DNA of 64,000 nt from Octopus vulgaris. Taxonomy: Eukaryota. Below are positions 1,946 to 52,069 of the stretch, one piece after another. The stretch is taken from assembly GCA_951406725.2 (NCBI GenBank), contig OX597836.1, positions 11,346,001-11,410,000 on the forward strand, written 5' to 3'. Below the pieces are notes generated by a model. The model did no database searches, was not told the origin of the DNA, and worked only from the letters and a program-made list of their open reading frames with translations. Position 1 is the first letter of the stretch. Every line of letters starts with the position of its first letter. The translations under genes were made by a program, and so were the position numbers.

Positions 1946-1993
1946 CATTTCAGTACTGGTTTCGATCATTTTGAGACCTTTTCAACTGTAACG
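1946..1993 (-). ncRNA. Type-I hammerhead ribozyme motif, U3-A8 core variant (Penelope-like element remnant)
   Basis: Minus strand reads CGTTACAG TTGAAAA GGTC TCAAAAT GATC GAAA CCAG TA CTGAAATG. Helix I is CGUUACAG/CUGAAAUG with one mismatch. Core is UUGAAAA, helix II is GGUC/GAUC, helix III is near-palindromic ACCAGU, and the cleavage triplet is GUA. Confidence 0.65.
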
Positions 1994-2284
1994 ATTAAAT
2001 AAGTAAATTTAGAAAAATTAAAAGAAAAGTTTTTTTAAAGGAATACTTGTATAGTGTTCAAATATAAGTGGCATTTTTCTTGTTTCTGCCTTTCTCTGTC
2101 TATCTAGCATTTTCTATCTTGACTTGTTTTTTCATATATATCAACTCGTGTGTTCCTTTTCACCCTTATATATATATATATATATATATATATATATATA
2201 TATATATATATATATATATATATATATATATATATATATATATATATATAGGGAGAGTTCACGACAGGCATCAACAGCAGTAGT

Positions 2285-2480
2285 GGAGGCGCAATGGCCC
2301 AGTGGTTAGGGCAGCGGACTCGCGGTCGTAAGAACTCGGTTTCGATTCCCAGAGCAAGCATTGTGAGTGTTTATTGAGCAAAAACGCCTAAGCTCCACGA
2401 GGCTCCGGCGGGGAGAGGTGGTGAACCCCGCTATACTCTTTCAAAACAACTTTCTTTCACTTTTCCTTCCTACTTCTTCC
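2285..2480 (+). mobile_element. SINE family B head (tRNA-like), 3' truncated
   Basis: GGAGGCGCAATGGCCCAGTGGTTAGGGCAGCGGACTCGCGGTC with A-box TGGCCCAGTGG and B-box-like GGTTTCGATTCC. The same head recurs many times in the window. Confidence 0.85.
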
Positions 2481-2767
2481 ACAAATCAGAGGAACCATGG
2501 TGTAACTCACTATAGTGTGGTAAAACTTTCAGACCCTAGTCTAGATTGCGAATCCTCTGTACCCCAGGATGGTTCAGCTCTCCAGTCGTTAAAGGCCATC
2601 GTTTACGGAATGAGGGCAACAACGTAGCTTTCGCGCCCCCGTGCAACCGCCAGTCTATCGCGTGTGGTGGGTGGATCTTCAAGCTGCTGCACGCATTCTT
2701 AGTAGTAGCTTAGGGTGGGCTCGAATTAGAGATTATTAATTCGTGGCTAATGGCGTGAATCCTGATT

Positions 2768-3192
2768 GGAAGAAGAAGAAGAAGGAGGAGGAGGAGGAGG
2801 AGGAGGAGGAGGAGAAGGAGAAGAAGAAGAAGAAGAAGAAGGAGGAGGAGGAGGAGGAGGAGAAGAAGAAGAAGAAGAAAAAGAAAAAGGAGGAGAAGGA
2901 AGAGGAGGAGGAGAAGAAGAAGGAGGAGGAGAAGAAGAAGAAGGAGGAGGAGAAGAAGAAGAAGGAGAAGAAAGAGGAGGAGAAAAAGGAGAGGGAGGAG
3001 AAGAAGAAGAAGAAGAAGAAGAAGAAGAAGAAAAAGAAGAAGAAAAAGAAAAAGGAGAAGGAGAAGGAAGAGGAGGAGGAGGAGAAGAAGAAGAAGGAGG
3101 AGGAGGAGAAGAAGAAGAAGGAGGAGGAGGAGAAGAAGAAGGAGGAGGAGGAGGAGAAAAAGGAGAGGGAAGAGAAGAAGAAGAAGAAGAAA
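2768..3192 (+). repeat. Pure polypurine (GAA/GAG)n tract, about 425 bp
   Basis: Only A and G on the + strand across the interval. It produces the spurious poly-K/E, poly-E/G and poly-L/F ORFs. Confidence 0.95.
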
Positions 3193-4647
3193 TAACAGCA
3201 GTAATAGCCGTTCAAGAATTTGGACCTGGAGATCTCCATTTGCAGCGACTTCGAGGGCCACCTCCCAGTGGTGTCGGGCTTCAGCGAAGGGCACTCGACT
3301 ATAACAAGACGACCAAAGTCTTTCTTTTATTTTTCCAAGGTCTGGGATCTCCCGCCCCTAAGTCCTAGACCATCACCTAATCACCCTTACCCGTCTTGTT
3401 GCTCAACAACAACAGCAGCAACAACAACTGCAGCAGCAGCAGTAACAACAACAACACCTGTTGTGCAGCAATATCCATAATGTTATGCAAAAATTCTAGA
3501 TCGATATGACAGATGCAGTAATATAGTAGATAGTAATAAGTGATCTATTTGGTGATTTTTATTGAGAGATGTATAGACGAGCGGAAAGTTATAGAATACA
3601 TGAGCGAGAAATACTCTTTAGTAGCTGTGTTTGATTAACCAAATAAGGGATGTCTGCTCAGTATTTACCAGTTCTATTTACCTGGAACGAAACGCACACC
3701 CCCCACGGCCAGGTTTTATATCAGCCCAATAAATATACAATCATCAAATGTTGTTTATTCTGAGCACACTTGCAAGTTCGTCCAATAAAAGAACCATCCC
3801 TTCAGGTAAGAGGAAGAGATTGTATGCGCGTGAGTGTGTCTATATGTGTGTATGTGTGTGTGTGTGTGCGTGGATGTGTGAGTATATATATATATATATA
3901 TGTGTGTGTGTGTGTGTGTGATTTTTCTGTGTGTTGTGTGTGTGTAAGTCTGTGTGTGGTTGTATATTAATGAGAATGAATCGTTTGACGCAATGTCCGA
4001 CAAACGTAGTTAAAGGGACACCGAGGTGAAAGAAGGGGGTGTGTAGTGAGGAAGGGAAAGTATGTGCCTCTGTGTGTACGTGTATCAGTGTGTGTGTGTG
4101 TGTGTGTGTGTATCCGTGTGCGTCTAGCTTTGTTCCTGTGGACGTACGCACATACGTAATTCCATGTATTTATGTATTTAGATACAATGCTTAACCAGGT
4201 AAGATATATATATATATGTATGTATTTATGTATGTATGTATATATGTACGTACGTACATGCATATCGATACACACATACAGACACATGCATATATACATA
4301 TGTATACAGACATATATACATATACGTACATAAACGCAAATATATATATGCATATATATATATATACATATGTATGTGTCTAGGAGGGTAACTTTCTAGG
4401 TGCAATCCCATATATATGTACTATATACTTATATATGTGTATGTGCGTATGTGTCTATGCATATATACCTACATACGCACACATACACACACACACATAA
4501 ATGTACATACATACATAACATACACACACACACACATAAATGTACATACATACATAACATACACACACACACATAAATGTACATACATACATAACATACA
4601 CACACACACACACACACACACACATATATATATATATATGTACGCAT

Positions 4648-4812
4648 CATAGAAGTAGGTGGGTGGTAAGTAGCTTCTTTACCAACCACAAGATCCCGAG
4701 TTCAGTCTCACTGCGTAGGGATCTTGGGCAGGTGTCTTCTACTATAGCCTCATGCTGACCAAAGCCTTGTGAGTGGATTTGGTAGACGGAAATTGAAAGA
4801 AGACCGTCGTAT
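4648..4812 (+). mobile_element. SINE family A, 5' part (degenerate)
   Basis: TGGTAAGTAGCTT...GTTCAGTCTCACTGCGT...GTGAGTGGATTTGGTAGACGGAAA, matching the full copies at 8297 and 23213. Confidence 0.8.
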
Positions 4813-4954
4813 ATATATATATATATATATATATATATATATATATATATATATATATAGTGTGTGTGTGTGTGTGTGTGTGTGTGTGTACACCTGTGTG
4901 TACATGTCTCTGTGTGTATGCGCGTGTGTCTAGCTTTGTTCCTTATATATACAT

Positions 4955-50559: not shown

Positions 50560-51070
50560 GTGAGCACTGAAAGCTTTCTGAGCAGATTTGGTAGACAGAA
50601 ACTGAAAGAAGCCCGTCGTATATATACATACATACATACATACATACATACATATATATATATATATATATATATATATATATATATATATATATATATA
50701 TATATATTATATATATGTATGTATGCATGCATGTATGTATGTATGTATGTATGTACGTATGTATGTATGCATGCATGTATGTATGTATGTATGTATGTAT
50801 GTATGTACGTATGTATGTATGCATGCATGTATGTATGTATGTATGTATGTATGTATGCGTGCTTGTGTGTCTGTGTTTGTTGCCCCATCATCGCTTGACA
50901 ATCGATGGTGATGTGTTTACGTCCCCGTAATTCAGCGTTTAGGCCAAAGAGACAGATAGAATAAGTAGCGGGCTTACTAAGAATAAGTCCTGGGGGCGAT
51001 TTACTCGACTAAATGCGGCGCCCCAGCATTGCCGCAGACAAATAAATGAAATAGTTAAACGAATAAAAGA
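50560..51070 (+). mobile_element. SINE family A, partial, with expanded internal microsatellite
   Basis: GATTTGGTAGACAGAAACTGAAAGAAGCCCGTCG...GCGGCGCCCCAGCATTGCCGCAG. Confidence 0.8.
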
Positions 51071-51110
51071 ATATATATATATATATATATATATATATAT
51101 ATATATATAT

Positions 51111-51349
51111 CCTTAAATCCTTAAAAATGTTTCAGCCCGAAATCTGTGGCCATGCTGGGGCACCACCGTTGAATGAGCTACACTAGTATGTGAAACCACC
51201 TTTGATACGTAGCACTTGGTCAACAAGGGAGTTCGACGCCGCTGCTCGCATCTGTGTTTCCTGCCGAGAGGTAGGTTCATCTGGAACCCCTGACAAGATG
51301 AGATCCAGTTTAGCTTTAAAGAAACCCACATCCACACCATGCAGGTCTC
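51111..51349 (-). pseudogene. CR1-group LINE extreme 3' end
   Basis: RDLHGVDVGFFKAKLDLILSGVPDEPTSRQETQMRAAASNSLVDQVLRIKGGFTY* (stop at 51183-51185) resembles invertebrate CR1-group ORF2 ends (FK.KLD..L..VPDEP...AAASNSL.DQ). The 3' UTR is GGTGGTGCCCCAGCATGGCCACAG...CTGAAAC. Confidence 0.7.
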
Positions 51350-51641
51350 ACGATTATATGTTTATATGTGACTATATATATATATATATATATATATATA
51401 TATATATATATATATATATATATATATATATATGTGAAATAGAAAGATGAATAATCTTGTAGTAGATTAATCAAAAATTTAACCGATACCTTAGTAGCAA
51501 AAATCACAGCAGTAAAACAGCACGGTTGGAGGTACAACCATATGGTGTTGCAACCGTGCGTTGGTGCGGATAATTGAAATTAGAACATTATTGGTGAATT
51601 GAAGAAATGGAGCTGAACGCAGATTGAACAGAAATCGTTTT

Positions 51642-51733
51642 ATTTCATTCTACACGTGTTTCGAAAGGCACAAATTACCAAAATCCGATGGAATAATGGG
51701 ACCATATTGTGTCTTTCTCTTCAGGAAGAAAAT
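51642..51733 (-). ncRNA. Mirror copy of the 51978-52069 hammerhead
   Basis: Exact reverse complement within the palindrome. Confidence 0.75.
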
Positions 51734-51977
51734 AGGAAATCCGTTGGAAAAACAAAAACAGAACAGAGGCAGAGCAAAAACAAATCGAACTATGCTCCTA
51801 AGAGCCCATGGCGAAACTGTTTATCAGTGTATGTTGAGAACCGGTGGCTGAAGAATTCTTCAGCCACCGGTTCTCAACATACACTGATAAACAGTTTCGC
51901 CATGGGCTCTTAGGAGCATAGTTCGATTTGTTTTTGCTCTGCCTCTGTTCTGTTTTTGTTTTTCCAACGGATTTCCT

Positions 51978-52069
51978 ATTTTCTTCCTGAAGAGAAAGAC
52001 ACAATATGGTCCCATTATTCCATCGGATTTTGGTAATTTGTGCCTTTCGAAACACGTGTAGAATGAAAT
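51978..52069 (+). ncRNA. Type-I hammerhead ribozyme motif, canonical core
   Basis: ATTTTCTTC CTGAAGA GAAAGACACAA[33 nt]TTGTGCCTTTC GAAA CACGTG TA GAATGAAAT. Helix I is 9 bp and helix II is 11 bp, each with one mismatch, and G10.1-C11.1 is present. Helix III is the palindrome ACACGUGU. The predicted cut is at 52060/52061. Confidence 0.8.

Follow-up and report, generated by a model that had tools for sequence, protein, structure and literature searches.

What are the hammerhead-like motifs that crowd a 64-kb stretch of the Octopus vulgaris genome? A sequence-only reading of this DNA (C23:11346001-11410000 of a 2.80-Gb genome in 227 contigs; all 64,000 nucleotides are "the window" below) had listed 17 positions as about 16 type-I hammerhead ribozymes, carried by tiny non-coding elements with a tie to Penelope-like elements (PLEs). 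Our analysis partly supports that reading. The motifs are of a known kind, PLE terminal-repeat hammerheads that mostly sit on truncated ends of coding elements, and they are real, non-random and abundant. We put at roughly 85% the probability that they are type-I hammerheads in the pseudo-long terminal repeats (pLTRs) of several coding PLE families, and that the short copies in the window are 5'-truncated 3' ends, likely left by a reverse transcriptase (RT) that stopped early at nicked (TA)n. This conclusion draws on family structure, linkage to open reading frames (ORFs), tandem full-length units, head-to-head palindromes, tails and (TA)n flanks.

Could the motifs be accidents of base composition? 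The window is AT-rich, and microsatellites abound in it. We searched it with a type-I descriptor composed of helix I of at least 3 bp, a Watson-Crick 3-8 pair in the core, an optional extra base at 9/10.1, helix II of at least 4 bp, GAA, a palindromic A..U segment and H. The control was a set of 40 dinucleotide shuffles of the window, masked for simple sequence repeats (SSRs). Five strict matches were found, against a shuffle mean of 0.05 (maximum 1). With one change allowed, there were seven against a mean of 1.4, and because shuffles then reached 6, loose matches alone are weak evidence. Omitting the extra base at 9/10.1 had given no match in the window (later versions gave four, then five), and a two-change descriptor was dropped for its obvious SSR false matches. 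An Rfam scan of the window returned no hammerhead among 150 of its 735 matches, those 150 being microsatellite-driven, and simple repeats overwhelmed a general repeat search. The protein motifs mentioned below were read by eye.

Sorted by quality, the 17 listed motifs comprise five intact, two with one change, six decayed, one half and three unsupported; the 13 supported ones fall into nine families. Type-I topology, the conserved core and helices I and II are present in the five strict matches and appear in six further motifs when family majorities are folded. The positions given earlier proved accurate, most of them marking the start of helix I, but four of the 17 sites (the half motif and the unsupported three) drop out of the count. 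The proposed diversity, about ten families with no shared sequence outside the core, holds in number but is partly wrong on sequence: the motifs at 7611 and 9051 are 70-81% alike, and helix II is common to 18649/30781 and 7937/45253. GUA and GUU cleavage triplets were borne out except in the family at 13607/13662, which has UUU. The supposed density of one motif per 4 kb comes to about one per 4.6 kb if decayed copies are counted and one per 13 kb for intact motifs.

A wider sample addressed abundance: 60 spaced 10-kb stretches (0.02% of the genome), with counts taken after the removal of matches in which SSRs exceeded 30%. These 600 kb gave 28 strict matches, seven of them from one tandem array, against 0-2 in six shuffles. 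The large, diversified population that had been proposed is upheld. The density, one per 21-28 kb, extrapolates from this small fraction to very roughly 100,000-130,000 strict motifs genome-wide. The exact patterns of individual families occur thousands of times, whereas reversed-pattern controls gave none. Further hammerhead families that are absent from the window were seen in random stretches (L082, L093, L095, L096, L107, L123, L130 and others); their helix III segments include ACGUACGU, ACCAUGGU, ACAGCUGU and ACGCGU, and several have U3-A8 cores.

The conservation of the fold was examined without circularity in 601 kb (59 stretches plus the window; stretch L077, which holds the tandem array, was left out). 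When positions 3 and 8 were left free, 20 of 21 matches were Watson-Crick there (15 C-G, 3 G-C, 2 U-A), and eight shuffles gave none. When helix III was left free, it was palindromic in 15 of 21 matches and in none from the shuffles, as expected from the self-complementary helix III described earlier. Compensatory changes separate A from A' (C-G to U-A in helix II) and C from E (G-C to C-G in helix I), and another lies within family F (G-C to A-U in helix II). Chance matching in AT- and microsatellite-rich DNA can claim the three single-copy, incomplete sites among the 17 and the shuffles that, with one change, nearly equal the window count. Against the strict counts in window and genome sample and the thousands of exact family patterns, it is barely credible as a general account, and for 13 of the 17 sites the shuffles, family majorities and non-circular tests refute it.

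What, then, carries the motifs? Longer copies in seven of the nine families continue upstream into RT or GIY-YIG coding sequence of PLEs, from which it follows that the short copies are mostly 5'-truncated ends. The tie to PLEs is thus supported, and the non-coding, retrozyme-like elements of 150-300 bp are not. The linkage is clear for A, B, D and F; for C, E and H it comes from a single locus or a handful. The layout is also that of PLE insertions: 3' ends are fixed at (TA)n, 5' ends vary, arms are inverted, and a tail is found on one arm. PMC8557442 and PMC3846280 describe 5' truncation, inverted copies, partial tandems, an optional tail and (TA)n targets for PLEs.

Family B provides the fullest picture. 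Upstream, its copies continue through about 600 bp of 3' untranslated region and then enter a frame for an endonuclease and RT. Of 12 loci that include the ORF start, seven have a direct pLTR with hammerhead and tail before the ATG; the tail on the minus arm of the window copy (about 51423-51584) equals the leader that precedes the ORF. Locus L228 (C1:119516000-119525999) contains three same-strand family B hammerheads 3.62 kb apart and two uninterrupted 899-codon frames. Together with L229 and L230, it shows tandem 3.62-kb Hydra-type units at 99% identity or more, with a linker that lacks CxCX5C; these units are a very young PLE family. Among the matches listed, 41 of 43 are at 100% (rounded) over 271 bp. 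Four contig sets labelled "RNA?" cover the pLTR and ORF, and (TA)n loose ends lie at about 1260 and 1420 of L178, which is evidence neither of expression nor of cut ends. Family A copies are 98-100% identical (40 scored of 692 candidates) and laid out like those of B, with a tail of 70 nt, and a frameshifted ORF with CxCX5C lies 1.65 kb upstream of the motif in L052. A tblastn search with the A and B proteins found no ORF remnant in the window, and a PDB search gave nothing useful.

Judged by motifs, A and B would fit the Hydra clade of PLEs with a C-terminal endonuclease as described in PMC8557442 (Craig et al. 2021); an octopus Hydra element with a hammerhead is listed there. They share FIQFDI, GLYRDD, (TA)n targets, a hammerhead near the 3' end and a C-terminal endonuclease without CCHH that, by eye, resembles that of Hydra-1_Obim; DKT is present in B and CxCX5C in A. 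Family B differs from that description in its unit length (3.62 kb vs. generally less than 3 kb), in having RW-L with its DKT in place of RWK, and in lacking CxCX5C; the N-terminus of A was not recovered.

Families F and D point to a second type. Upstream of family F, five of seven long loci have an RT (RYLDD) and a GIY-YIG domain (Pfam E=1.4e-5) with CX4CxxC and CCHH. Among 20 family D loci selected for a longer 5' side, four have a GIY-YIG frame (Pfam E=1.4e-5) some 1 kb upstream; a direct pair of family D hammerheads lies 3.12 kb apart in L273. Both have the C-terminal GIY-YIG with CX2-5CxxC linker and CCHH that PMC8557442 gives for Neptune/Nematis-type PLEs, the Pfam matches of L244 and L218 lying above the cut-off, and similar endonuclease remnants occur in C and E. 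The G3-C8 core of D and the A6U core of E are differences from that type, and the assignment is by motifs, not phylogeny.

Several observations weigh against this reading. The ORF links of C, E and H are single loci with weak scores: some family C copies have more than 1 kb of upstream sequence in common, one of them terminating in a GIY-YIG remnant (L201/L214) without a Pfam match; family E, with its fixed 3' end and variable 5' ends, has such a remnant in 1 of 16 loci (Pfam E=0.079); and one of the five long family H loci shows, about 0.9 kb upstream, a remnant of a Hydra-like endonuclease (tblastn E=8e-5). No ORF link was made for A', G or the family at 47273. The clade of A and B is read from motifs because Pfam did not recognise their proteins. 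Finally, family C copies usually begin at one strongly preferred point, about 215 bp before the element end, and there are seven end-to-start junctions, five without intervening TA, including one with a 219-bp period. Part of family C may therefore spread as a non-autonomous unit, and these junctions, with a 359-bp tandem array elsewhere in the genome, mean that a retrozyme-like minority is present. That array (L077:2272-4548, C1:20002272-20004548) repeats every 353-359 bp and includes an inverted block; every unit has a canonical type-I hammerhead with a GUC triplet. It is a true non-LTR retrozyme-like array.

These last features are what would be expected if the short elements were non-autonomous non-LTR retrozymes that replicate via small circles of RNA, excised by dimeric hammerheads, and that PLE proteins insert. 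Elements of this type are the subject of PMC7229834 and of Li et al. 2026 (bioRxiv 10.64898/2026.07.22.740005); they share with ours the type-I fold, a weak helix III, a relation to PLEs and high copy number (126,247 in axolotl). They are short, tandem, non-coding units, whereas the window families are solo or inverted, mostly with coding long members. Of the 28 strict motifs in the genome sample, 15 are solo, six are in inverted pairs and seven are from the one array; none of the window copies is in direct tandem; and the seven family C junctions stand against 6,148 exact canonical motifs of that family, leaving retrozyme-like tandem units nearly absent. As an account of the window as a whole, we regard retrozymes as improbable. 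In two loci (L185:1354-1500 and L198:1383-1500), the family C 3' end directly follows a PLE N-terminal coding piece with a GLRFTP motif, which suggests internally deleted copies.

How would truncated PLE ends come to carry a hammerhead so regularly? For Poseidon of Anolis, Frangieh et al. 2024 (PMC11167929) report that RT starts in the tail, that uncut RNA is the main template, and that the hammerhead cut only in the presence of protein and is dispensable for insertion in vitro. By the same scheme, the octopus element protein would nick AT-rich DNA and begin copying inside the tail, downstream of the uncut hammerhead, and nearly every insertion, however short, would therefore receive the motif. 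Between a motif and the 3' end lie from a few dozen to about 200 bases, and even very short insertions therefore include one. The palindromic helix III would be too weak to fold alone, and the template would stay uncut; cutting would require either an encounter with a second copy, 3.1-3.6 kb away in a tandem multi-unit transcript, or the help of a protein. On this view, the majority of copies in the window would be inert relics. In Poseidon as in our families, the 3' end takes two positions, one at the end of the pLTR and one at that of the tail; AT-rich targets and a tail that equals the sequence at the ORF start are also common to them. They differ in that the Poseidon tail, 30-40 bp, lies inside the ORF start, whereas that of family B is a leader of about 150-160 nt before the ATG.

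Computed duplex energies bear on the proposed switch. The helix-III palindromes form no monomer hairpin, and the 8-mers give homodimers of -7.0 to -14.1 kcal/mol; AAUAUU and ACGU reach only -0.2 and -1.7 kcal/mol. Such values fit a motif that is off in a single unit and possibly cuts in tandem transcripts, as is proposed in PMC4209133 and reviewed in PMC6765202; it is from this literature that dimer cleavage would be carried over to the present motifs. In the window, paired motifs lie on opposite strands, and no cis dimer is therefore possible there. In read-through RNA of such a pair, one sense motif would instead be paired to its own antisense copy. The long perfect palindromes left by insertion would, if read through, likely be a source of double-stranded RNA. 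In A' (7582-7801) and D (13527-13790), the inversion point often coincides with helix I or lies immediately 5' of it; reverse transcription may pause or fold back there.

Do the families with unusual cores still cut? The core of family D has G3 and C8 swapped (GUGAACA) and goes with a UUU site. Its exact pattern has 4,708 genome copies (control, 0), and the pattern without G3 has 113, with no C3-G8 among 100 listed. Family E has U6 in 14,944 exact copies vs. A6 in 158; any of the four bases occurs at its position 7, whereas the other core positions are fixed. Lunse, Weinberg and Breaker (RNA Biol 14:1499) reportedly describe PLE hammerhead variants that cleave as dimers, and may already list G3-C8 or A6U. 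Our literature searches, the reach of which did not extend to that paper, found no natural core of either kind. The sections consulted of PMC4209133 and PMC3088659 report U3-A8 and A6C as natural variants, the latter slow to cleave (PMC3088659), and in those of PMC11167929 and PMC3884650 G3-C8 appears only in laboratory swaps, which gave partial rescue. It is possible, though less likely than not, that D, on an ORF-bearing element, and E spread with non-consensus cores that still cut. They would then be slow ribozymes, gated by dimer formation or by protein, that standard descriptors miss.

A contrary view is that the hammerheads of most families no longer cut and are mere passengers in the pLTR, either as a structure or as parasites on the element. 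It agrees with the truncated-PLE reading on structure and differs only on activity. The spread of the U6 form of family E, the UUU site that accompanies the swapped core of family D, the slowness of the natural A6C variant (PMC3088659) and the in vitro finding that catalytic mutants did not impair insertion (PMC11167929) all speak for it. The near-invariant 3-8 pairing and the frequent palindromy of helix III, both recovered when left free, and the fixed core of family E around a variable position 7 argue the other way; this is the pattern that selection on a catalytic fold would be expected to leave in sequence. A general loss of cutting is possible but, in our judgment, doubtful.

The closest precedent is the set of metazoan PLE pLTR hammerheads of Cervera and de la Pena 2014 (PMC4209133). 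In the passages compared, these too are type I with a palindromic 15-16 region, an extra base between 9 and 10.1 in several families, a U3-A8 variant and many consensus families per genome; they also are mostly solitary motifs from truncated PLEs, with opposite-strand pairs 100-700 bp apart. The extrapolated octopus total of about 100,000 compares with 2,000-9,000 there, by differing descriptors; the helix-II inserts of A, B and G here are long (40-70 nt); and no counterpart of the G3-C8 and A6U family cores was found in those passages. PMC13282606 reports 31 recently active Penelope-like families in an octopus.

Because the system is already known, the main value of these results is in annotation: many short repeats in this genome that resemble short interspersed nuclear elements or miniature inverted-repeat transposable elements are PLE ends, for which the hammerhead offers a means of classification. 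A total near 100,000 strict motifs would put this genome close to the axolotl count at a much smaller genome size. Canonical, U3-A8, G3-C8 and A6U families and an intact tandem element in one genome make the role of the PLE hammerhead testable; if the D and E cores cut, they would form, with the young intact tandem Hydra-type element, a natural series for that purpose.

Table 1. Hammerhead-bearing elements, motifs and unsupported sites in the window, with the position under which each was first listed.
Feature	Position	Strand	Listed as	Remarks
Family F, 5'-truncated Neptune-type PLE 3' end	1899..2166	-	1946	inverted stub + tail 2105-2166
Family F hammerhead	1951-1988	-	1946	one change; U3-A8 core, GUA site; helix III ACCAGU vs. 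family ACCGGU
Unsupported	6330..6342	-	6325	GAAAC-like strand only; matches itself + one weak match outside motif
Family G decayed hammerhead	7145..7247	-	7137	helix III ACGAUCGU, GUU site; old family, 72-81% identity
Family A' head-to-head palindrome + tail	7521..7801	-	7611	palindrome 7582-7801, tail 7521-7581
Family A' intact hammerhead	7612-7696	-	7611	strict descriptor; related to family A
Family E decayed motif	7937..7970	-	7937	CUGUNGA core, A6U
Family A, Hydra-type PLE 3' end	8743..9241	+	9051	70-nt tail 9172-9241, then (TA)n
Family A intact hammerhead	9051-9128	+	9051	strict descriptor; ACAUAUGU, GUA
Unsupported	10630..10641	-	10624	GAAACAAUUGUA only (3' strand), single copy
Family D head-to-head palindrome, tail on minus arm	13466..13790	.	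13607/13662	PLE 3' end with C-terminal GIY-YIG
Family D decayed motifs	13607-13653, 13662-13710	-, +	13607/13662	family majority folds
Family C fragment, motif 5' half only	14429..14515	-		cut inside helix II; absent from the earlier list
Family C copy in (TA)n	18570..18785	+	18649	minimal hammerhead 18649-18683, one change A15.1 to G
Family C copy	30708..30914	+	30781	intact minimal hammerhead 30781-30815, strict descriptor; ACGU, GUU
Family H decayed hammerhead	41256..41316	-	41256	U16.1 to C
Unsupported	42859..42938	+	42859	core + helix I, no helix II, single copy
Family E copy	45157..45340	-	45253	motif 45252-45289; A6U is a family trait, G8 loss is this copy's own
Hammerhead-like 3' half	47210..47288	-	47273	GAAACGGCCGUA at 47276-47287 (GAAAC-palindrome strand); 5' core strand absent; old repeat family
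Family B, very young Hydra-type PLE end	51423..52126	.	51642/51978	perfect 542-bp head-to-head palindrome 51585-52126
Family B intact hammerheads	51648-51727, 51984-52063	-, +	51642/51978	strict descriptor

The sites listed at 6325, 10624 and 42859 are not supported as hammerheads, being essentially single-copy and incomplete; that at 42859 is possibly a very old relic. Two other features of the window were noted in passing. On the minus strand, a 141-codon frame (15534-15959), without a useful Pfam match, looks by eye like the C-terminal end of an RT of the long interspersed nuclear element type. Beside several of the motifs lies an abundant short interspersed repeat without a hammerhead, found at 47325-47412 and in at least ten other places.

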